DNA of 40,000 nt from an uncultured Planctomycetota bacterium (GTDB lineage: Bacteria; Planctomycetota; Planctomycetia; Pirellulales; Lacipirellulaceae), in NCBI GenBank assembly GCA_963807935.1, contig CAWEDY010000004.1, positions 76,522 through 116,521 on the forward strand, read 5' to 3'. Position numbers and translations under genes: made by a program. Position 1 is the stretch's first letter; each line of letters begins with the position of its first letter. The notes below the pieces were generated by a model. It was not told where the DNA came from. It did not search any database and was given only the letters and a program-made list of their open reading frames with translations. Positions 1,308 to 25,310 of the stretch are shown in pieces.

Positions 1308-2816
1308 ATGGCCGGAGATCGAGCCGAGGACGAAAAAGTTGACGGTGGATCGGAATCGTCCGCCGTGGCGGTCGAGACAAACGGCGAGGAGGAAGCCCCG
1401 CAGAAGTTGGATCTCGACGTTCAGGTTACGAACCCCAGCGCGTGCGAGCGTCACGTGACGGTGACGATCGCCCGGGGCGATATCGACCGGTATTTTGATG
1501 ATGCGTTCGGCGAGATGATGCCGACGGCGGCGGTGCCGGGGTTTCGGATTGGCCGGGCGCCGCGGAAGGTCGTCGAGCATCGTTTTCGCGACGAAGTCTC
1601 CGACCAGGTGAAAAGTGCGCTGTTATTAGACAGCTTGGAGCAGATCAGCGAGGAGCAGCGGTTCACGGCGATCAGCGAGCCGAACTTCGATCTGGAAGCC
1701 GTCGAAGTTCCCAAAGACGGTCCGATGACGTTCGAGTTCACGATCGAAGTACGGCCCGAGTTCGAGATGCCGAAGTGGAAGGGGCTGAAGCTCAATCGCC
1801 CGGTGCGCGAATTTACAGATGCGGATGTCGATGAGCAGCTCGAGCAAATGCTGTCGCGATACGGGCAATTGGCGCCGTACGAGGGCGCAGCCTCTGCCGG
1901 CGACTATGTGTCGTTGAACATTACGTCGACGGCGGATGGCCAACAGGTAGCGCGCGAAAGCGAAGCTGTGGTGCGGATTCGTCCGGCGCTGAGCTTCCGC
2001 GACTCGCGGCTGGATGGATTCGCCGGGTTAATGAAGGGCGTGAAAGAGGGCGACCGCCGTACGGCCGAGGTAACGCTCAGCAAAGATGCGCCGAATGCAG
2101 AATTGCGGGGCAAGAAAGTTCATCTGGAATTTGAAGTGCTGGGCGTGAAGAAGCTGAAACTGCCCGAACTGACCGAGGATTTCTTACAGGAGCTGGGCGG
2201 ATTTGCGACGGAAGCGGAACTGCGCGAGGCGATTCGCAAGAATCTCGAGCGGCAGATGGAATACCAGCAGCAGAAGATCGCGCGAAGCCAAATCTCGTCG
2301 TTGCTCACCAAGAGCGCGGACTGGGAACTTCCGCCCGGCCTGTTGCAGCGGCAAAGCGCCCGCGAATTGGAGCGGGCGGTGATGGAGCTGCGGCGCAGCG
2401 GCTTCAGCGAAGCGGAAATTCGCGCTCGCGAGAACTTGTTGCGGCAAAACAGCACGTCGAGCACGGCCACGGCTCTCAAAGAGCATTTCATTTTGGAGCG
2501 GATCGCCGAAGAAGAAAAAATCGACGTGGATGAAGGCGATTACGAGAAAGAAATATTCTTGATCGCGGCGCAGAGCGGGGAGTCTCCGCGGCGCGTGCGA
2601 GCTCAATTGGAAAAACGAGGGCTGATGGACGTGCTGCGGAATCAGATCGTCGAGCGCAAAGTGCTCGAATTGGTGCAATCGGAGGCCAAATTCAAAGACG
2701 AGCCGTACCAACCTGAAAAAACCGACACGGAGGCAATTTCAATGGCGGCCGGTGGCGGAACGGGGGGCGAGATTCCCGTGATCACCGAGAAGAATGAAGA
2801 AAGCGAAACGGAGTGA
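1308..2816 (+). CDS. tig: Trigger factor (ribosome-associated peptidyl-prolyl isomerase/chaperone)
   Basis: Full-length ORF (track start 1299 is GTG; first ATG is 1308). Trigger-factor architecture with an N-terminal ribosome-binding region (VTVTI..FGEM..VPGFR.GRAP). Classic tig-clpP gene order. Acidic N- and C-terminal extensions. Confidence 0.92.
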   Translation: MAGDRAEDEKVDGGSESSAVAVETNGEEEAPQKLDLDVQVTNPSACERHVTVTIARGDIDRYFDDAFGEMMPTAAVPGFRIGRAPRKVVEHRFRDEVSDQVKSALLLDSLEQISEEQRFTAISEPNFDLEAVEVPKDGPMTFEFTIEVRPEFEMPKWKGLKLNRPVREFTDADVDEQLEQMLSRYGQLAPYEGAASAGDYVSLNITSTADGQQVARESEAVVRIRPALSFRDSRLDGFAGLMKGVKEGDRRTAEVTLSKDAPNAELRGKKVHLEFEVLGVKKLKLPELTEDFLQELGGFATEAELREAIRKNLERQMEYQQQKIARSQISSLLTKSADWELPPGLLQRQSARELERAVMELRRSGFSEAEIRARENLLRQNSTSSTATALKEHFILERIAEEEKIDVDEGDYEKEIFLIAAQSGESPRRVRAQLEKRGLMDVLRNQIVERKVLELVQSEAKFKDEPYQPEKTDTEAISMAAGGGTGGEIPVITEKNEESETE

Positions 2817-2907
2817 GCGCACTGGCCTTGTTTAGAGGCTGTGCGTGGGCACACAATAGTGGCCGCTTGGAGGCCGGCGAACCGTCGGCGCCATGATTTG
2901 GCTACAA

Positions 2908-3003
2908 GCGGTTTCAAAACGGGGGGCTAGCACCCCCGCGGCTGACCGGATCAGCCGGAACGCGCTAGCGTCCGGTTGATGGGGGTTGAGTTTTGAAACT
3001 GCT
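2908..3003 (+). other. About 95-nt multi-hairpin element in the tig-clpP spacer (function unknown)
   Basis: Closing helix AGCGGTTTCAAAAC (2908-2921) / GTTTTGAAACTGCT (2990-3003) matches 13/14. It encloses hairpins GGGGG..CCCCC, GGCTGA-CCGGA-TCAGCC and GGAACGC-GCTA-GCGTCC. Confidence 0.3.
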
Positions 3004-3139
3004 GATAGTCAGTAAAGTGACCAGTCCGCACCACGGGTGTCCGCGACGCTGAGCGTCGAGTTATCGCGTTCCCAGGCCGAGCGTGGGAAGGCGAAACGCT
3101 GCCCCTTGACGTTTGCCGCCGCACACAAAGGATTCTCCT

Positions 3140-3775
3140 ATGAAGAGCACCAGACATGAGCCGATTGCAGCGTTCGGTGAGGTAGCGTCCCAGGCGATGC
3201 GCGATTATCAGCGTCAGCGGCAGATGACGCTGGGCGATCTGTTGTTGGAAAACCGCGTGATCTTCCTGCAGGGAGAGATCTACGACGGCAACGCCAACGA
3301 GCTGGTGATGAAGCTGCTGTATTTGCAGAGCGAAAATCGCCGCAAAGAGATTCATTTTTACATCAACTCTCCCGGCGGCAGCGTCACGGCTACGCTGGCA
3401 ATTTACGACACGATGCAGATGATCTCCTGCCCAGTGGCGACTTATTGCGTCGGCTTGGCGGCCAGCGGCGGGGCGGTTCTATTGGCCGGCGGCGAGAAAG
3501 GCAAGCGGTTCGCGCTACAACACGCCAAAGTGATGATTCACCAGCCGCACGGCGGCGTCGGCGGGCAGGTCTCGGATATCGAGATTCAAGCCAACGAAAT
3601 CATCCGCACCCGCATGGCGCTGAACGAGATACTGGCCCAGCACTCCGGCAAAACGGTCGAGGAAATCGCCAAGGCCTGCGACCGCGACTACTACATGACC
3701 CCGGAAGAGGCCAAAGCGTTTGGCATCGTGGACGATATTCTGTTGAAGCAGCCGGTGAGCGAGGATGAAGAGTAA
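3140..3775 (+). CDS. clpP: ATP-dependent Clp protease proteolytic subunit, divergent paralog
   Basis: ClpP motifs INSPGGSV, Ser in GLAASGGAV, His in MIHQP, Asp in DRDYYM. ATG at 3140 is preceded by AAGGA (track start 3113 is TTG). N-terminal extension relative to the second copy. Confidence 0.9.
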   Translation: MKSTRHEPIAAFGEVASQAMRDYQRQRQMTLGDLLLENRVIFLQGEIYDGNANELVMKLLYLQSENRRKEIHFYINSPGGSVTATLAIYDTMQMISCPVATYCVGLAASGGAVLLAGGEKGKRFALQHAKVMIHQPHGGVGGQVSDIEIQANEIIRTRMALNEILAQHSGKTVEEIAKACDRDYYMTPEEAKAFGIVDDILLKQPVSEDEE

Positions 3776-3896
3776 CGTTTTTCAACCACACCGGCGCAAC
3801 GCCCAGGACGAGAAATGACCAATTGCGAAAGCTCATAAAAGTTACTCGTCGTGCCGCCGTGGTTCCATTTAATCGCATTTGAGCGCCTAAAATAAC

Positions 3897-4502
3897 ATGT
3901 CTCTAATTCCCTACGTAATCGAAAAGAGTGGCCGCGAAGAGCGGGCGATGGATATTTACAGTCGCCTGCTGAAGGACCGCATAGTAATGCTCGGCTCCGC
4001 GGTGAACGACGACGTGGCCAACAGCCTCGTCGCGCAGCTATTGTTCCTGCAATCGGATGATCCGAAGTCGGACATTCATTTGTACATCAACTCGCCCGGT
4101 GGCAGCGTGACCGCCGGTCTGGCAATCTACGACACGATGCAGTTTGTTTCTTGCGACGTAGCGACGTACTGCGTGGGCCAGTGCGCGTCGATGGGAGCGG
4201 TGCTGCTGGCGGCCGGGGCCGAGGGCAAACGCCACGCCCTGCCGAACGCCCGGATCATGATTCATCAACCATCTGCGGGTATGGAGGGCTCGGCCGAAGA
4301 TATTCTCATTCATGCCACGGAATATAAGCGGACCAAGGAGCGGCTGAATCGCATCCTCTTCAACCATACGGGGCGCTCGCTCGAGCAAATCGAGAAGGAT
4401 ACGGACCGCGACAAATTCATGTCGGCTGAGGAGGCGATGGAGTATCGGCTCATCGATAAGGTGATTACGAGTCTGTCGCAGAGCAAAGGGATGACAGCTT
4501 AG
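3897..4502 (+). CDS. clpP: ATP-dependent Clp protease proteolytic subunit, canonical
   Basis: Near-consensus ClpP: [44 protein letters not shown]. Confidence 0.95.
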
Positions 4503-17915: not shown

Positions 17916-20900
17916 TTATCCGCTACTCTTTGCGAGCTTCTCGAGCGCCGAGTCGACCGATGCTAGTTGGCCGCGAAGTTCGGCAAGCTTGCCTCGCTGT
18001 TGCTGGACAACTTCGGCGGGCGCTTTCTCGACGAAGGCGTTGTTAGCGAGCTTGGCCTCGATCGATTTGATTTGTTTTGAGACGTTCTCGCGATCCTTTT
18101 CGAGGCGGTTTCGTTCGGCCGCGACATCAATGAAGCGGCTCACGTCGACGTGCACTTCGAACGGCCCGGCTTGGCCGGCAAGCGTGATGCTAATAGGCAC
18201 ACCAGTTGGCCGAGCGGCCGGTCCGAATTCGGCGGCCGTTGCGCGGGCCATTTGGGCGAAGTACGGCTGCATCGGTTCGAGCAATTTGGCGGTCGCTTCG
18301 TCGCAACGCACCGTGAAGCTGAGTTCCTCTTTAAACGGAATGTTCTGACGTTGGCGGGCTTCGCGGACGGCGCCAAGCACAGCTTGGAAGCCGGCGAACT
18401 GTTGTTCGATCGTCGCATCCAAATGATTGGGACTGTGTTCCGGCCATGTAGCAATGCAAACGCTCTCTTCGGCGCGCCGTACCTGCTCTATACCGCGGTC
18501 TGGCGCCGCCTGCCCTAATAACTGCCAAACCTCTTCCGTCAAAAATGGCATCATGGGGTGCAGCAATCGAATGAGCACGTCGAGGGCGTGGGCCAACACT
18601 CGTTGGGCCGTTTCGCGGTCACGTGGCCGCGTCTCGCCGAGACGCGATCCCGAGGCTCGGAGAGACTCGTCCACGTGGACGAACCGAGCTTTAGTCATCT
18701 CCACGTAGAAGCTGCAGAATTCGTTCCAAGCAAAATCATATAGCAATCTAGCCGCATCGGCATACCGGTACTGATCAAGGGCTCTTCGCACGTCGAGAGT
18801 TACGGTCGAAATGCGGGAGAGCAGCCAGCGATCTTCCAAGAGTAAGGAACCGGGATGGAGGGCGCGCGGTTGAGGGCTGTCTTCCCCTGCCCCCTGCATC
18901 CCGCATCCTGCATCCTCTCCCGCAAGATTAATCAACGAAAACCGCGCCGCGTTCCACAACTTGTTCGCGAAGTTGCGGCCGAGTTCGAAGCGCTCGCTGA
19001 CCACCGCGCCGCGGGGCAGGGCTTTGTCCTCCGCCTTCTCGGCCCATTGGGTGCTGAACGGTTTTTGGCATTTTTCGCATTCGACGCGCGCCAATTGGCG
19101 GTTCTCTTTGGTTTGCGGAAACATCGCGCCGCAATGCGGACACTCAAATTCGACCGGCATCCGCACGTCCTGCGTTTCGGTCGTCAGGTGCGCAAGGCCA
19201 AAGCGGAGTGCGTCGGCGCCGAACTTATCGATCACATCGAGCGGATCGACGCCGTTACCCTTCGATTTGGACATCGTTTCGCCATAGCCGTCGAGGATTT
19301 TGGGCGTGATGTAGACCTCGTGGAACGGCACTTCGCGGACGTTGTAGAGGCCCGAAATGACCATCCGGGCGACCCATAGCGTAATAATGTCGCGCGACGT
19401 GATGAGCGTGCTGGTGGGATAGAATTTTTTCAGTTCCGGCGTTTCCTCGGGCCAACCCATTGTGGAGATGGGCCAGAGGGCGGAGGAGAACCAGGTATCG
19501 AGTACGTCGGATTCGCGAACAAAGCCTTTTGATTCGATCAATGCAATGACTTCTTTGTCACTTTCATTTGCGCACACAAATCGATTCGCCAGGAAGCTCG
19601 TTTTGCAAATCCTCTTTACTTTCGACCGTAGTCGGTCGCCTGTCGCAATGCGGCCCTCGTGTTCCCACGCATTGAGTTTATTTTCAAATGCGACGTATGC
19701 ATCATCGACCAACGCGCCAATAGCGGGCTCAGTCCATACCGGAATCCGATGTCCCCACCAGAGTTGCCTGCCGATGGGCCAGTCGCGTTTCTCGGCGAGC
19801 CAGTCGAGGTAACCTTTGGCGTAGCGATCAGGGACGATCTTCACGCGGCCCGTGGTGACGGCGTCCATGGCGGTTTGGGCCAGTTTGTCCATCTTCATGA
19901 ACCATTGGTCCACGCGGCGTGGTTCGATCGGTTTCTTGCTGCGGTCGGAGTGGGCCAGGTCGATGTCGCGGTCTTCGATTTCGACGAGCAAATCGGCGGC
20001 TTCGATATCGCCGACGACAGCTTCGCGAGCCTTGGTGACTGTCATGCCGCGGTACTTTTCCGGCGCGCTGTCGTTGAGCGTGCCATCATCGTTCAGGAGG
20101 TCGATGACGCCGATTTCGGGGTGACGCTGCCAAACGTCGTAGTCGTTGGCGTCGTGGCCGGGGGTGATTTTTACGCAGCCGGAACCAAGTTCGGGTTTTG
20201 CCCATTCGTCGGTGATGAGGGGAATTCTGCGGCCGGTGAGGGGGAGTTCGAGCATTGTACCGCGGGTAGCCATGTCGCGGAGGCGGACGAGTTGTGGGAG
20301 GACCGCCTGGCGGCGGCCGCTAAGGAATTCGATTTCGACCTCGATGGCAGCCTTCTCTTTTGCCGGCGCAGAGTAAAGTTTTTCACGAAGCACGGCGCCC
20401 GCTTTGTCGAGCGCGGCGGCCGGGTCGGGATGCACGGCCACGGCGGTGTCGCCGAGCATCGTTTCGGGCCGCGTGGTGGCGATCGTGACGAACCGCGGCT
20501 CGCCCGGTTTGGGATCGACCACCGGATATTTGAAATGCCAGAAGTGGCCTTTTACGGCCTCGTGGAAGACTTCATCGTCGCTGACGGCGGTTTGCAGGAA
20601 CGTGTCCCAATTGACGAGCCGTTTGCCGCGGTAGATTTTGCCGTCCGCAAACAGGCGGAAGAACCATTCGCGGACGGCGCGGGCACATTGGTCATCGAGC
20701 GTGAAGCGGGTGCGGGCCCAGTCGCAACTGCAGCCCATTTTTTTTAGTTGCGACAGGATGCGGGCTTCGTACTGGTCCTTCCATTGCCAGATGCGCTTCA
20801 CCAACCCGTCGCGGCCCAGGTCGTGGCGAGTTTTCTTTTCCTCTTCGAACAGCCGGCGTTCGACCACGGCTTGCGTGGCAATGCCGGCGTGGTCGGTACC

Positions 20901-21152
20901 GGGCATCCAGAGCGTGTTAAAGCCTTGCATCCGCCTCATGCGGATGAGGATGTCTTGAAGCGTGTTGTTGAGCGCGTGGCCAAGGTGGAGGGCGCCCGTC
21001 ACGTTCGGCGGTGGAATGACGATGCTGTAGACGGGCCGCTTGTCGTCGGGATCCGCGTTGGCGTGGAAGTAACCGCGCTGCTCCCAGTAGGTGTACCACT
21101 TGGCCTCCGCGGCGGCGTGATCGTATTGGGAGGGTAAGTCTTTGAAGTCCAT
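17916..21152 (-). CDS. valS: Valine--tRNA ligase (1078 aa, with lineage-specific insertions)
   Basis: Class I signatures PPPNVTGALHLGHA and TMSKSKGNG, a CP1 editing domain, RNFANKLWNAARF and a C-terminal coiled coil. Confidence 0.95.
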   Translation of the reverse strand: MDFKDLPSQYDHAAAEAKWYTYWEQRGYFHANADPDDKRPVYSIVIPPPNVTGALHLGHALNNTLQDILIRMRRMQGFNTLWMPGTDHAGIATQAVVERRLFEEEKKTRHDLGRDGLVKRIWQWKDQYEARILSQLKKMGCSCDWARTRFTLDDQCARAVREWFFRLFADGKIYRGKRLVNWDTFLQTAVSDDEVFHEAVKGHFWHFKYPVVDPKPGEPRFVTIATTRPETMLGDTAVAVHPDPAAALDKAGAVLREKLYSAPAKEKAAIEVEIEFLSGRRQAVLPQLVRLRDMATRGTMLELPLTGRRIPLITDEWAKPELGSGCVKITPGHDANDYDVWQRHPEIGVIDLLNDDGTLNDSAPEKYRGMTVTKAREAVVGDIEAADLLVEIEDRDIDLAHSDRSKKPIEPRRVDQWFMKMDKLAQTAMDAVTTGRVKIVPDRYAKGYLDWLAEKRDWPIGRQLWWGHRIPVWTEPAIGALVDDAYVAFENKLNAWEHEGRIATGDRLRSKVKRICKTSFLANRFVCANESDKEVIALIESKGFVRESDVLDTWFSSALWPISTMGWPEETPELKKFYPTSTLITSRDIITLWVARMVISGLYNVREVPFHEVYITPKILDGYGETMSKSKGNGVDPLDVIDKFGADALRFGLAHLTTETQDVRMPVEFECPHCGAMFPQTKENRQLARVECEKCQKPFSTQWAEKAEDKALPRGAVVSERFELGRNFANKLWNAARFSLINLAGEDAGCGMQGAGEDSPQPRALHPGSLLLEDRWLLSRISTVTLDVRRALDQYRYADAARLLYDFAWNEFCSFYVEMTKARFVHVDESLRASGSRLGETRPRDRETAQRVLAHALDVLIRLLHPMMPFLTEEVWQLLGQAAPDRGIEQVRRAEESVCIATWPEHSPNHLDATIEQQFAGFQAVLGAVREARQRQNIPFKEELSFTVRCDEATAKLLEPMQPYFAQMARATAAEFGPAARPTGVPISITLAGQAGPFEVHVDVSRFIDVAAERNRLEKDRENVSKQIKSIEAKLANNAFVEKAPAEVVQQQRGKLAELRGQLASVDSALEKLAKSSG
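18881..18915 (-). repeat. GGATGCR heptamer array lying in frame inside valS
   Basis: The minus strand reads GGATGCA GGATGCG GGATGCA GGGGGCA GGGGAAG. A 21-nt stretch is identical to the intergenic copy at 16386-16406. Confidence 0.65.
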
Positions 21153-21252
21153 TTCCGAATTATGGCGTTTTGTGAGTTAGAGCTAAACCGCAAGTGAGGG
21201 GCGACACGTGCCCGCGGAAGATTCGGCGTGGCCGCCGACGCTAAATATCTCG

Positions 21253-21269
21253 CGCGACCGGCGGTCGCG
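21253..21269 (-). terminator. Perfect 7-bp hairpin just downstream of cimA (weak terminator candidate)
   Basis: CGCGACC-GGC-GGTCGCG lies 4 nt after the cimA stop, followed on the minus strand by GAGATATTT. Confidence 0.3.
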
Positions 21270-21272
21270 TCC

Positions 21273-22840
21273 TTATGCGCTCTCCTTACACAACTTGTAT
21301 TCGATGCTATCCACGAGCGCGTCCCAACTGGCTTTGATGACATTTTCGTTGACGCCGACGGTACCCCAAGTCGTACCATCAGCGTCTTGGCTTTCGATCA
21401 CGACTCGCACGGCGGCTGCGGTGCCGGCATCGCTGTTGATGACGCGGACCTTGTAGTCGACAAGCTGCACGCCGCGGAGGTTCGGAAAACGCCCATTAAG
21501 CGCTTTTCGCAGCGCGGCGTCCAGGGCGTTCACGGGGCCGTCGCCCTCGGCCACTTCATGGCGAACCTCATCGCCGACGCGGAGCTTCACGGTGGCTTCG
21601 GTGGTGGTTTCGCCATCGCCATTGGTTTCGACATCCACGTGATAATGCAGCAGGTCGAAGTGCGGGTGGAAAGTGCCGGCGAGGCGCTGTACGAGCAGGT
21701 CGAACGACGCCTCGGCCGCCTCGTACTGGTAGCCGCGGTTTTCGAGCTCGACGACTTCCTTGAGCACGCGCTCGGCGAGTGCCGAGTCGTGCTGCAAATT
21801 GCGCTTCATCGCCAGCGCCATGATGTTCGAGCGGCCGGAGAGCTCGCTCACCAGCACGCGGCGCTCGTTGCCGACCTTTTCGGGCGCGATGTGCTCGTAG
21901 CTATGGGCCGCCCGGCTCACGGCATGCACGTGCATTCCGCCTTTGTGGGCGAATGCGCTGGGGCCGACGAACGGCTGATTCGTGCGGAAGTGCATATTGG
22001 CAACTTCGTACACGTAGCGCGATAACTCGGTGAGGTGCTCGACGCCCACTCCACCGAGCACGACGTAATCTTTTTTCTTGAGCGCAAGGTTGGCGATCAC
22101 CGAGATGAGATCGACATTGCCGCAGCGTTCGCCGAGGCCGTTGATCGTGCCTTGCACGTGGACGGCGCCGGCGCCGATCGCGGCGAGCGAATTGGCCACG
22201 GCCAGCTCGCAGTCGTTGTGCGTGTGGATGCCGAGCGGAACATCGACAGCGGCGGCAGCTTCTGTTGTAAGGGCGGCCACCTCCTCCGGCATGCTGCCGC
22301 CGTTCGTGTCGCACATCACGACGAGCATGGCACCGCCTTCGACCGCTGCCTGAATCGTTTGGCGGGCGTAATCGGGGTTTGCCTTCCAGCCATCGAAAAA
22401 GTGCTCGGCATCGTAGATGACGTCGCGGCCCATTCGCGCAAGTAAGAGACCGTTTCGCGGATCATCGCGAGGTTTTCTTCGAGCGAAACGCGGAGGACGT
22501 CGGTGACATGGAAATCGTGCGTCTTGCCGACAATCGTGATGACGGGGGCGTGCGAATCGACGAGCGCTTTCATGCCTGGGTCGTCTGCCGGCTTGGCGCC
22601 GCGGCGGCGCGTCATGCCGAAGGCACAAAGCCGTGCGTGCTTTAGCGGCTCGGCAGCCAGGCGTTGGAAGAACTCGGCGTCCTTCGGGTTGGATAGCGGA
22701 TAGCCACCTTCGACGAAGTCGAAGCCGCAGGCATCGAGGCGGCGGGCGATGAGGAGCTTGTCTTGCAAGGAGAAGTTCACGCCTTCGCCTTGGGCACCGT
22801 CGCGGAGCGTGGTGTCGTAGATTTGGATGGATTGTCCCAT
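21273..22840 (-). pseudogene. cimA: (R)-citramalate synthase (CimA / LeuA-family), interrupted by one frameshift
   Basis: N-terminal fragment 22316..22840 (IYDTTLRDGAQGEGVNFS, GFDFVEGGYP) and C-terminal fragment 21273..22628 (DAEHFFDG, HTHND, C-terminal regulatory domain) join at about 22430-22436. One extra A in GAATGG would restore ...SYLRE-MGRDVIYDAEHFFDG. Confidence 0.85.
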
Positions 22841-22897
22841 GGAATTTGGCGTGTATTCAATAGAGCGGTCGACGGCGGAAGGGTGGATACTACCACC

Positions 22898-22930
22898 AAT
22901 AAAAAACCCCGAGGCTTTGTGGCCTCAGGG
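22898..22930 (-). terminator. Canonical intrinsic terminator in the cimA 5' leader (attenuator candidate)
   Basis: The minus strand reads CCCUGAGGC-CACAAA-GCCUCGGGG followed by UUUUUUAUU. It sits 57 nt upstream of the cimA ATG. Confidence 0.7.
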
Positions 22931-22961
22931 TTGGTGTGTTTCGATTCGGTCGAACCGACCC

Positions 22962-23048
22962 TCAAGGCCTCTTCTTCGCGCTAATAATCACGATGATGCC
23001 GGCATTGCCGGTAATGGCGACGAGAGGTTTGGGCGGTGTAGCCAACAT
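22962..23048 (-). CDS. Candidate 28-codon leader peptide MLATPPKPLVAITGNAGIIVIISAKKRP
   Basis: Hand-translated; too short for the supplied track. ATG 23048 has GGGGA 4 nt upstream. Codons 18-22 are AUC AUC GUG AUU AUU. The stop is TGA at 22962-22964. Confidence 0.5.
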   Translation of the reverse strand: MLATPPKPLVAITGNAGIIVIISAKKRP

Positions 23049-23090
23049 ACGATCCCCGGAAAATTGATCGCACGAATGGATCATCATGCA

Positions 23091-23119
23091 AAGATAGCGG
23101 GCGGTTAGTGGGGCGTCAA
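23091..23119 (-). promoter_or_regulatory. Sigma-70-like promoter candidate for the leader/cimA transcript
   Basis: The minus strand reads TTGACG (23119-23114), 17 nt, TATCTT (23096-23091). It is about 45 nt upstream of the leader ATG. Confidence 0.4.
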
Positions 23120-23134
23120 GTTGCTGGCGGCGAA

Positions 23135-23188
23135 GCCGCTTTAGCGGCCGGGTGTATTTTCAACCGCATTCGCGGCCGCTAAAGCGGC
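23135..23188. repeat. Two 14-bp palindromes, GCCGCTTTAGCGGC and GCCGCTAAAGCGGC, 40 bp apart
   Basis: 23135-23148 and 23175-23188 are reverse complements of each other. They lie in the divergent region between the cimA leader and the DUF1559 gene. Confidence 0.5.
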
Positions 23189-23337
23189 CCGGCTGCCCCA
23201 CATTTTCCGCCAATTCGCGGTTGACCCGCGGCGCTGCTTCAGCTTATGGTGCGGACAGTAAGTAATCCCACCTTCGTCCGCCGCACACCCTACCCACCTG
23301 GCGGACCGTTGTACCCTTTCTTCGAAAGGAGCATGCT

Positions 23338-24300
23338 ATGCGCAAATTAGCAGGCGCACGCGCTTCCGTTACGGCACGCGGAGCGTGCCCACGACGTGGT
23401 TTCACCCTCGTCGAAGTGCTGGTCGTGATCGCGATCATTGGCATACTGGTCGCGTTTTTGCTGCCGGCCGTCCAGGCCGCCCGCGAAGCGGCACGACGCA
23501 TGCAATGCCAGAACAATCTCAAGCAGATCGGCGTGGCGATTCAAAACCATCACGACACGCGTAAAGCGTTCCCGATGGGCCGCAATCGTTGGGACCAGTT
23601 TGCGGTGTCGTGGGCGTTTTTCTTGTTGCCGTATATGGAAGAGACGGCGGTCTACAACAGTTGGGATCCAAATGCGAAGTCTTTTGATCCACAGAACGAT
23701 CAGACGATGCGAACGCCGATCGAGACCTATGCGTGCCCGAGTCGCCGCAAAGCAGCGGCGGACCGGAATTTCGACAATAACGATTCACCGCCGCCCGCAG
23801 ACGCCGTGGGCGTTGCTACGCTGTCGGATTATGCCGCGAATGCGGGAACTAAACTGATGACCGGCATGGTGGGCGACGACAAATCGGCAACCGTCTTCGG
23901 TGGTTACAGCCGCCTGGAAGCTGGGCCGATATTCAGCGGATCGCATATCAGCGCTCGCCAAGTGGAAGACGGCCTCTCCCATACAATCGCCGTGGGCGAG
24001 CGGCACCTGCCACCAGTGCCGGCCAACACAGCCGATGACATGAAAGACTTCGCCATCGGCGATACTGCAGCCATCCCGGGCGATACTCCGCACACCACGT
24101 TTCGTTGTTCGGAAGACGGACTGGCGACTGGTCTAGAAGATACAGATCGCGAGAAGTTCGGCAGCTCCCATGCTGGGGGAGTGGTTCAGTGTGTATTTTT
24201 AGACGGCCACGTGCGCGGCTTACGGCCCGATATCGCGGTCGCGGTGCTCAAAGCGCTGAGCACGATCGGCGGCGGCGAAACTGTGCCGGACAACGAATGA
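23338..24300 (+). CDS. DUF1559 protein with prepilin-type N-terminal methylation motif (H-X9-DG class pseudopilin-like)
   Basis: RRGFTLVEVLVVIAIIGILVAFLLPAVQAAREAARRMQCQNNLKQIG.A..N and C-terminal SSHAGGVVQCVFLDGHV. AAGGAG Shine-Dalgarno before the ATG. Confidence 0.9.
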   Translation: MRKLAGARASVTARGACPRRGFTLVEVLVVIAIIGILVAFLLPAVQAAREAARRMQCQNNLKQIGVAIQNHHDTRKAFPMGRNRWDQFAVSWAFFLLPYMEETAVYNSWDPNAKSFDPQNDQTMRTPIETYACPSRRKAAADRNFDNNDSPPPADAVGVATLSDYAANAGTKLMTGMVGDDKSATVFGGYSRLEAGPIFSGSHISARQVEDGLSHTIAVGERHLPPVPANTADDMKDFAIGDTAAIPGDTPHTTFRCSEDGLATGLEDTDREKFGSSHAGGVVQCVFLDGHVRGLRPDIAVAVLKALSTIGGGETVPDNE

Positions 24301-24356
24301 TATCGGGCTCGTGCGGACTGGTCGCTTCGCGGGCCCGTCCGTCTTACAATGGGCGG

Positions 24357-25310
24357 ATGCCAGCACTTAATCAGCGCGCGTACGAGCTATGCAACGCGAT
24401 GGCCGCCGATGCGGAGCGGCTTGGGATCGCGGTCAGCATGCTTCCCTGCGGCACGCGGCTGATCGATTGCGGCGTGAAGGCGCCGGGCAGCATGGAAGCG
24501 GGCCGCCGGCTGGCGGAGGTTTGCATATCCGGTCTGGGGTCGGTCCGGATGATTGAAATCGACTCTGCTTACTTGCCGAGGAAGCGGGTGGAAGTCTCGC
24601 CGAATCCGACCGTTGCGGCATGCTTGGCATCGCAATACGCTGGCTGGGAAATTACCAGTGATGGCTTTTTCGCAATGGGCTCGGGGCCGATGCGAGCCGC
24701 CGCAGGCCGAGAGGAACTGTTCAATACGATCGGTCACCGAGAGCGGCCCGATGTGTGCGTTGGTGTGCTGGAGACTAGCAACTTCCCTCCGGACGATGTG
24801 TGTATCGACATTGCAGCCAAATGCGGCATAAAACCCGCCGGTCTGACGCTATTGGTCGCGCGAACGGCGAGTCCCGCCGGAATGGTGCAGATCGTGGCCC
24901 GCAGCGTCGAAACTGCTTTGCACAAACTGCATACGCTTAAATTTGATCTCGGCCGGATCGAATATGGTTTCGGAAATGCTCCTTTGCCGCCGGCGCCGAA
25001 GGACGATCTAACTGCGATCGGAAGAACAAACGACGCAATCCTTTACGGGGCATTTGTCGCCATTCTCGTTCACGGCGATGATGCTTCGCTCGCAGAGATT
25101 GGGCCGCACACACCGAGCAGTGCGTCGCCCGATTTCGGCCGTCCATTTACAGAGATTTTTGAGCACTACGGTCGCGATTTCTATCGGATTGACCCCGCGA
25201 TCTTCAGCCCTGCCGCGATTACGTTCTATAACTGCGACACGGGGAACTCGTTTCGATACGGGCACATGGCGCCAGAGGTGTTGGCCCAGTCGTTTGGCAG
25301 CACGAGCTAA
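24357..25310 (+). CDS. mch: Methenyltetrahydromethanopterin cyclohydrolase
   Basis: Mch-like throughout (LN.RA..L...M..........GT.IDCG, ACLASQYAGW, AMGSGP.RA, GRTNDAILYG). ATG 24357 is chosen; the track start 24105 is an upstream extension overlapping the previous gene. Confidence 0.88.
   Translation: MPALNQRAYELCNAMAADAERLGIAVSMLPCGTRLIDCGVKAPGSMEAGRRLAEVCISGLGSVRMIEIDSAYLPRKRVEVSPNPTVAACLASQYAGWEITSDGFFAMGSGPMRAAAGREELFNTIGHRERPDVCVGVLETSNFPPDDVCIDIAAKCGIKPAGLTLLVARTASPAGMVQIVARSVETALHKLHTLKFDLGRIEYGFGNAPLPPAPKDDLTAIGRTNDAILYGAFVAILVHGDDASLAEIGPHTPSSASPDFGRPFTEIFEHYGRDFYRIDPAIFSPAAITFYNCDTGNSFRYGHMAPEVLAQSFGSTS

Follow-up and report, generated by a model that had tools for sequence, protein, structure and literature searches.

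The stretch of DNA considered here (henceforth the window) comprises 40,000 nucleotides (nt) from an uncultured planctomycete of the Pirellulales family Lacipirellulaceae (contig CAWEDY010000004.1 of assembly GCA_963807935.1, positions 76,522 to 116,521), and its minus strand codes for the citramalate synthase CimA followed by the valine–tRNA ligase ValS (Table 1). In the citramalate route, which leads to 2-oxobutyrate and isoleucine, CimA catalyzes the first committed step. The gene upstream of cimA, coding for a prepilin-type protein (23338-24300), is divergently oriented, so that the leader region between the two must supply its own promoter. In this leader region, an initial annotation made from the sequence of the window had recognized a promoter, a short open reading frame (ORF) with a run of Ile and Val codons, and an intrinsic terminator, and had interpreted them as the parts of a leader-peptide transcription attenuator. 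Our comparison of the region with other cimA loci supports this interpretation, apart from the details of a pause hairpin and a Shine-Dalgarno sequence.

Table 1. Features of the cimA leader and the two genes behind it, in positions of the window
Feature	Coordinates	Strand	Description
Sigma-70-type promoter	23091..23119	-	-35 TTGACG 23119-23114, 17-nt spacer, -10 TATCTT 23096-23091; 9/12 matches
Leader peptide ORF	22962..23048	-	ATG 23048, UGA 22964-22962; 28 codons, MLATPPKPLVAITGNAGIIVIISAKKRP*
Regulatory codon run	22983..22997	-	AUC AUC GUG AUU AUU (Ile18-Ile22); read from the sequence
Antiterminator 5' strand	22958..22970	-	AGGCCUUGAGGGU; includes leader UGA 22964-22962; best duplex partner of the terminator 5' arm
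Antiterminator loop	22932..22957	-	With small inner hairpin (UCGGU-UCG-ACCGA type); from nascent-RNA folds
Intrinsic terminator	22898..22932	-	AACCCUGAGGCC-ACAAA-GCCUCGGGGUU stem-loop, then U6AUU; 11 base pairs, 7 of them GC
cimA (citramalate synthase)	21273..22840	-	TIGR00977, 663 bits against a cutoff of 450 (frameshift-repaired protein)
valS (valine–tRNA ligase)	17916..21152	-	NF004349, 1009 bits; 120 nt downstream of cimA

Architecture of the cimA leader

The promoter, whose coordinates hold as originally assigned, is the sole promoter-like site on the minus strand within 21000-25000. We compared the leader region with those of 80 cimA loci (labelled L001 etc.), taken from one genome per species and spanning 51-87% protein identity. 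In about 27-30 of these 80 loci, a promoter, an Ile-rich ORF, a segment around the stop codon of that ORF, and a terminator follow each other in the same order. In ~25 of 30 loci, the sequence ahead of the leader ORF that best resembles a promoter has the form TTGACN-N17-TAnnnT, always with a spacer of 17 nt, and the consensus for the leader family is TTGACA-N17-TAnnnT; in L002, both hexamers are kept and the spacer sequence has diverged.

ATG-started leader ORFs, 17-58 codons long, are present in 28 of the 29 leader-bearing loci. That of the window, with a GGGGA located 4 nt 5' of its ATG, begins 42 nt downstream of the -10 element, the typical distance in other loci being 28-58 nt. These distances favor the ATG at 23048 over an in-frame ATG at 23087, from which a longer ORF of 41 codons could be read; the latter start is unlikely, as it lies only 4 nt past the -10 element, before the point where transcription probably starts. 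Across the loci, the encoded peptide varies in its N-terminus and in its length, and it is the C-terminal Ile-rich run and the residues overlapping an RNA helix described below that are conserved. The Ile codons always fall in the single open frame, the spacing between the Ile run and the stop codon differs by multiples of three, such that the reading frame survives indels across the loci, and the changes inside the run are either synonymous or from Ile to Val.

The cluster of Ile and Val codons noted at 22997-22983 encodes IIVII in the window and has counterparts in the relatives, with III or a longer run being found in most orthologues (e.g., leader C-termini of the form GIVIIIRQRRP, GIVAISIIIREVRP, VIGIIIIREVRP, GAIVIIIPEVRP, and SIIAISIIIGTGKA). 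Relative to cimA itself, the last 20 codons of the leaders are enriched in Ile (4.7x), Val (1.6x), and Pro (3.0x), and depleted in Leu (0.4x). The enrichment of Pro largely reflects the CCN codons of the GGCC helix discussed below. Val codons are present in nearly all leaders; nevertheless, on the evidence of these sequences the dominant signal is Ile. The leader Ile codons are 73% AUU, 25% AUC, and 2% AUA, whereas AUU makes up 24% in the cimA genes of these loci. Attenuator leaders commonly make use of less favored codons. Many leaders end in Arg/Gly-Pro-stop, an ending that is partly forced by the GGCC helix and that, speculatively, might slow termination and prolong the masking of the overlapping RNA by the ribosome.

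The intrinsic terminator likewise occurs where the initial annotation had placed it, ending 57 nt before the cimA ATG at 22840. Its stem (22932-22905) has a predicted stability of -17.4 kcal/mol, its U-run reaches 22898, and its 5' arm (22931-22921) is common to the antiterminator. Across the family, the sequence is conserved as CCCUGAGGCC-loop-GGCCUCAGGG-U6-9, and the leader stop codon is mostly 29-35 nt away from the stem, the full range being 22-49 nt. When 18 sequences were aligned with MAFFT, without any fitting to structure, 90.4% of the cells in the terminator columns pair and 5 of the 11 pairs change on both sides; these helix and covariation statistics, and those given below, ignore the kinship between the loci.

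The stop-codon segment as a probable antiterminator

The initial annotation had further proposed that the segment spanning the leader stop codon pairs with the terminator 5' arm and thereby acts as an antiterminator, and several comparisons bear this out. In the window, the duplex between 22970-22958 and 22931-22921 has an energy of -14.3 kcal/mol, which was equaled in 4 of 200 shuffles. In 27 of the 29 leader-bearing loci, of all segments in the 75 nt that precede the terminator 5' arm, the one that pairs with it most stably is the homologous segment of the form GGCC-N-stop-GGG, which ends 17-32 nt upstream of that arm (21-32 nt in 26 loci). The exceptions are the variant represented by L023 and L028, and the divergent L050. 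We also folded the nascent RNA between a point 13 nt past the last Ile codon and the terminator loop, which represents a stalled ribosome with the terminator 3' arm not yet transcribed. In these folds, the antiterminator is the minimum-energy structure in 28 of the 29 loci, with energies of -14 to -29 kcal/mol (-23.9 kcal/mol in the window, where the terminator has -17.4 kcal/mol). The inner hairpin of the antiterminator loop is found in the window and in many orthologues, and its sequence is variable.

The pairing is also reflected in the pattern of substitutions. On the above alignment, 84.8% of the cells in the antiterminator columns are paired, versus 22-61% with slid partner columns, and 6 of the 11 pairs have changed on both sides, a value reached in none of 500 shuffles. 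Compensation is evident as GGCC:GGCC becoming GACC:GGUC in L029 and L061 (GACCG:CGGUC in L061) and GGCG:CGCC in L020. Next to GGG:CCC, one group of loci has a U:A pair where another has C:G, with a matching change in the terminator 3' arm. Further, cognate duplexes between antiterminator strand and terminator arm are more stable than non-cognate ones (-18.0 versus -15.8 kcal/mol; permutation p ~5e-5).

The position of the stop codon relative to this structure is itself conserved: it falls within the antiterminator strand in the core group and 4-10 nt upstream of it in L017, L022, L025, L029, and L047. The last Ile codon of the window's leader starts 15 nt upstream of the strand.

Three loci carry variant leaders with an Ile/Val-rich ORF and a terminator (L023:3854-3956, L028:3853-3957, and L050:3708-3817). 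In this subgroup, the antiterminator strand seems to pair with the apex of the terminator rather than its base (AGCAGG:CCUGCU in L023 and L028), and the three constitute a structurally divergent subgroup.

Two further hairpins were considered. The CCGGC-AAU-GCCGG hairpin inside the leader ORF, which the initial annotation had offered as a possible pause site, is present in the window and has no conserved counterpart in the other loci, where the 48-nt segments ahead of the Ile run are no more stably folded than shuffled sequences (mean z +0.26); we hence reject it as a feature of the family. Similarly, an anti-antiterminator (the 1:2 helix of classical attenuators) was sought between the 5' part of the ORF and the antiterminator strand, and no significant pairing was found (mean z -0.38). 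Thus, as far as the sequences reveal its structure, the family is a three-segment attenuator comprising the antiterminator strand, the shared arm, and the terminator 3' arm.

Distribution and specificity of the leader

A covariance model (R1), built from 18 leader sequences and searched against 81 sources, recovers 33 full-length matches (E<1e-3), one per locus and always upstream of cimA, with no second copy within the 40-kb window. As a separate measure of specificity, we applied to both strands of 1.41 Mb of DNA (the window and the loci) a rule that combines a terminator-like hairpin with an ORF having at least 5 Ile/Val in 8 codons and ending 15-60 nt before the stem. Among 297 terminator-like hairpins, this rule returned 29 hits, 26 of which are the cimA leader. 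The ensemble of features is far beyond chance. The lack of conservation among relatives that the initial annotation had named as refuting evidence is not observed: the ORF, the Ile run, and both helices are conserved in ~30 species-level genomes, rather than being peculiar to the window.

The carriers belong mostly to the Pirellulales, and among them are Lacipirellula, Lacipirellulaceae, and Thermoguttaceae, as well as a cultured species, Bremerella cremea JCM 17758 (leader at L020:3821-3936). Within the 80-locus set, no leader was found in Brocadiia, Isosphaerales, Gemmatales, Alienimonas, or any locus from outside the planctomycetes. In the two closest relatives of the window, L001 and L002, the leader is near-identical to that of the window (...GSIVIISATGRP*) and has the same promoter hexamers. 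One locus labelled as an 'uncultured Chitinophaga sp.' (L035; CAZFDW010000015.1) has a planctomycete-like CimA (65% identity) along with a Pirellulales-type leader and terminator, and is probably a mis-binned contig.

The cimA–valS pair

The identification of the gene behind the leader as cimA stands, with the correction that it is frameshifted in the window; models for isopropylmalate synthase score the repaired protein far below their cutoffs. A 1-nt deletion near 22433 (22428-22440, minus strand), where the window reads CGCGAATGGG and the relatives L001, L002, and L007 read CGCGA(A/G)ATGGG, splits the gene into the overlapping ORFs 22840-22316 and 22628-21273. The deletion is either an artifact of assembly or of a homopolymer, or the mark of a recent pseudogene.

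The gene for ValS directly follows cimA in ~48 of the 80 loci (e.g., L002:6428-9547), and the pair extends across the Planctomycetota to Brocadiia, Isosphaerales, and Gemmatales, all of which lack the leader. It is a conserved pair without an obvious pathway rationale. No U-tailed terminator was found between cimA and valS on the minus strand of the window, and the sequences suggest that the two genes are probably co-transcribed, with the regulated unit including valS. Directly after the cimA stop codon lies a GC-rich hairpin without a U-tail (GCGACC-GCC-GGUCGC, 21255-21272, minus strand), which may affect the stability of the RNA or act as a weak, factor-dependent terminator.

A predicted ribosome-mediated attenuator and its alternatives

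We propose as the likely function of this element that it is a ribosome-mediated leader-peptide attenuator, which would couple the expression of cimA, and probably valS, to charged tRNA-Ile and secondarily to tRNA-Val. Transcription would start ~35 nt upstream of the 28-codon leader ORF. With Ile in ample supply, the ribosome would proceed to the UGA in the middle of the antiterminator 5' strand (22970-22958) and occlude that strand while the polymerase makes the next ~60 nt; where the stop codon precedes the strand by 4-10 nt, as in the five loci listed above, the strand would still lie inside the ribosome footprint. With the strand masked, the terminator (22932-22905) and its U-run would form, and the transcript would end short of cimA. 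When charged tRNA-Ile is scarce, the ribosome would instead stall on the AUC AUC GUG AUU AUU run, whose last Ile codon lies at least 13 nt upstream of the antiterminator strand, leaving that strand exposed to capture the terminator 5' arm as it emerges, the antiterminator fold being predicted to be the more stable of the two. The terminator would thereby be blocked and the polymerase could continue into cimA and probably valS; the Val codons could add an input from tRNA-Val that is relevant to valS. This scheme follows from the position of the stop codon inside or just 5' of the antiterminator strand, by which a terminating ribosome would mask the strand and an Ile-stalled one would not; the conserved stop position and the nascent-RNA folds are consistent with the same scheme as put forward in the initial annotation. 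What the sequences show directly are the parts and their conservation, two mutually exclusive helices that covary, and the bias in codons; we infer the ribosome footprints, whose sizes are assumed from E. coli ribosomes, as well as the timing, the co-transcription of valS, and the response to Ile. As there is no conserved anti-antiterminator, a leader that is not translated at all is predicted to read through.

Several observations weigh against this proposal. The GGGGA of the window, taken by the initial annotation as a Shine-Dalgarno sequence, has no conserved counterpart before the leader ATGs of the family. Several close relatives, namely Bythopirellula (L003 and L005), Botrimarina (L008), and L010, lack the element altogether. 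In L001 (~1990-3990) and L002 (1869-3947), a gene for a 692-aa polytopic membrane protein with C-terminal TPR repeats and no evident link to isoleucine intervenes between the leader and cimA. In L004, the promoter, Ile run, antiterminator, and terminator are present, the last of these 194 nt from cimA (14-134 nt in the other loci); however, there is no in-frame start codon at the usual distance, the sole nearby ATG being in the +1 frame, which may point to an indel error in a long-read metagenome-assembled genome or to a decaying leader. The covariation statistics are uncorrected for phylogeny. Neither a pause nor an anti-antiterminator hairpin that could synchronize ribosome and polymerase is conserved. 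Finally, mutation of the candidate regulatory codons in the Streptomyces coelicolor ilvB and leuA leaders revealed no classical attenuation behavior (PMC1262725).

The most serious alternative is that the attenuator mainly serves valS, with its Val codons sensing charged tRNA-Val in a pheM-like autoregulation and cimA being secondary, or that it is a combined sensor of Ile and Val. The adjacency of valS to cimA in ~48 loci, without a U-tailed terminator between them in the window, and the 1.6x enriched Val codons of nearly all leaders would be in keeping with such a role, for which there are parallels in the attenuators reported or predicted for the synthetase genes pheST and Streptomyces trpS and leuS (PMC1262725). 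However, the enrichment of Ile is 4.7x, and the conserved core of the run is three Ile codons. Moreover, the synteny of cimA and valS is shared by the leaderless Brocadiia, Isosphaerales, and Gemmatales, and the GC-rich hairpin after the cimA stop codon stands ahead of valS, for which an internal promoter is possible. We hold a valS-centered role to be rather improbable.

A different kind of alternative would have a regulator other than the ribosome, such as a metabolite riboswitch, an RNA-binding protein, or an uncharged tRNA that stabilizes the antiterminator, with the small ORF being incidental. Both alternative helices and the inner hairpin are indeed conserved as RNA, the leaders share no Shine-Dalgarno sequence, and in S. 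coelicolor there are precedents for leaders with irrelevant codons (PMC1262725). Nevertheless, several aspects of the leader speak for its translation: an ATG is retained in 28 of the 29 loci, the Ile codons keep to the single open frame throughout, the indels are multiples of three, the variation is synonymous or from Ile to Val, the bias is specific in enriching Ile and depleting Leu, and the position of the stop codon relative to the antiterminator is kept. On the RNA side, there is beyond the two helices no complex conserved fold that could provide a ligand pocket, and no match of the window region or of 13 leader-bearing loci to the T-box or any other Rfam family, which together make this alternative very unlikely. 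Least probable of all, and to our mind scarcely credible, is a free-standing small hydrophobic protein with its own terminator beside cimA, or a constitutive insulator or partial terminator without conditional read-through: although the C-terminal half of the peptide is hydrophobic, the terminator is strong, and the next gene in L001 and L002 is not cimA, only the Ile run and the helix-overlapping residues are conserved, with the N-terminus and length being free, Leu, which is typical of membrane peptides, is depleted, the covarying antiterminator would have no role, and a strong terminator behind a strong conserved promoter, with no other promoter evident, would silence the essential cimA unless read-through were conditional.

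Other features of the window

A 93-codon ATG ORF on the plus strand (22827-23108) is antisense to the entire leader and terminator region. It is very likely spurious, and an automatic gene caller could pick it and thereby mask the leader. Just upstream of the -35 element, a perfect 17-bp inverted repeat, GGCCGCTTTAGCGGCCG ... CGGCCGCTAAAGCGGCC (23135-23188; spacer ~22 nt), lies between the divergent prepilin-like gene and the leader promoter. Its DNA hairpin has an energy of -25 kcal/mol (z -3.0), and it occurs once in the window and in none of the 80 related loci; it may represent an operator or a small inserted element.

The other genes of the window are of housekeeping type: tig, clpP (two copies), aspS, hom, lysC, mch, gap, serS, hisG, and miaA. 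Of the window's contents, mch, the gene for the prepilin-type protein, and the nearest relatives of CimA point to the Pirellulales as its source. A second attenuator was sought upstream of hisG and lysC in the window and none was found; ahead of hisG lies a hisE-like ORF, without any sign of a His-rich leader or terminator.

Relationship to known attenuators

The multivalent ilvL (ilvGMEDA) and ivbL (ilvBN) leaders of E. coli and Salmonella are alike to the cimA leader in having a short leader ORF with tandem Ile/Val codons, a terminator before the regulated gene, an antiterminator competing for the terminator 5' arm, and a connection to the control of a branched-chain amino-acid pathway. However, their sequences are unrelated to it, and no Rfam leader family matches the latter. 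They regulate ilv genes, whereas the cimA leader precedes a gene of the citramalate route with valS behind it, and they include Leu codons, in which the cimA leader is depleted. The cimA leader further differs from them in lacking a conserved protector/pause (1:2) hairpin, in having its stop codon inside the antiterminator strand, and in its planctomycete hosts. With the E. coli trpL leader it shares the logic by which the position of the ribosome on the leader ORF picks the antiterminator or the terminator. In contrast, trpL has four segments (1-4), including a 1:2 pause/anti-antiterminator structure, such that its untranslated RNA terminates, while the cimA leader has three and is predicted to read through under the same circumstance. 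The pause/anti-antiterminator (1:2) hairpin is found in the trp, his, and leu examples and is not universal.

The closest recent analogues are the Corynebacterium ilvB-II upstream ORF, the ilvB-OMG and Leptospira ilvB motifs (PMC10272879), and the actinobacterial ilvB leaders (PMC1262725). Like the cimA leader, these are lineage-specific upstream ORFs rich in branched-chain codons, coupled to a terminator and antiterminator, and discovered comparatively outside the Proteobacteria; they differ in serving ilvB instead of cimA, in their lineages, and in their sequence and structure. The pheST leader (pheM) and the predicted Streptomyces trpS and leuS attenuators (PMC1262725) place a leader attenuator before a synthetase gene and offer a possible analogy for valS. 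In contrast to these, the synthetase of the predicted cimA-valS transcript is the second gene, behind an enzyme for another amino acid. The Ile/Leu/Val T-boxes of Firmicutes (leuA/ilvB; PMC12452182) respond to the same signal, tRNA charging, and have the same terminator/antiterminator output; however, they bind the uncharged tRNA directly and need no translation, whereas the cimA leader has clear coding features and no T-box match.

A scan of Rfam 15 yielded no relevant match in positions 22000-24000 of the window (E up to 10) or in 13 leader-bearing loci (gathering thresholds). The only weak matches are microRNA-like and fall on an unrelated palindrome, the inverted repeat upstream of the -35 element (23126-23197). 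A full-text literature search found no leader peptide described for cimA or for Planctomycetes, with the survey of Lopatovskaya et al., 2010 (Mol Biol 44:128) being outside its scope; in one survey, Planctomycetes appear only in statistics of the distance from leader gene to structural gene (PMC4833913). Thus, while the class of mechanism is classical, the cimA-leader family itself is apparently undescribed.

Implications for planctomycete biology

To our knowledge, almost no RNA-level regulation has been described for the Planctomycetota, and we know of no earlier leader-peptide attenuator assigned to cimA. The leader represents a well-supported new family of cis-regulatory RNAs not contained in Rfam 15, and its ~28-codon ORF, promoter consensus, and terminator consensus can be used in annotating planctomycete genomes. 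By implication, the alternative isoleucine pathway would be feedback-controlled via the charging of tRNA-Ile, much like the classical ilv pathway.

More tentatively, and as a suggestion that we would ourselves call unlikely though worth stating, the element could be a two-signal attenuator of the conserved cimA–valS operon, in which the Ile codons report the need for the citramalate pathway and the Val codons an insufficiency of valine–tRNA ligase. If true, a single leader would govern an enzyme that makes one amino acid together with the tRNA ligase of a different one, with a minimal three-segment design whose default state is ON.

As attenuation of this kind works only if translation closely trails transcription, the leader may also be seen as a genomic marker of such coupling in the Pirellulales; the ~30 carriers of this order would, if the proposal is true, constitute direct genomic evidence of obligatory transcription–translation coupling in the Planctomycetota. 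The presence of the leader in a cultured species, Bremerella cremea, makes the prediction directly testable.

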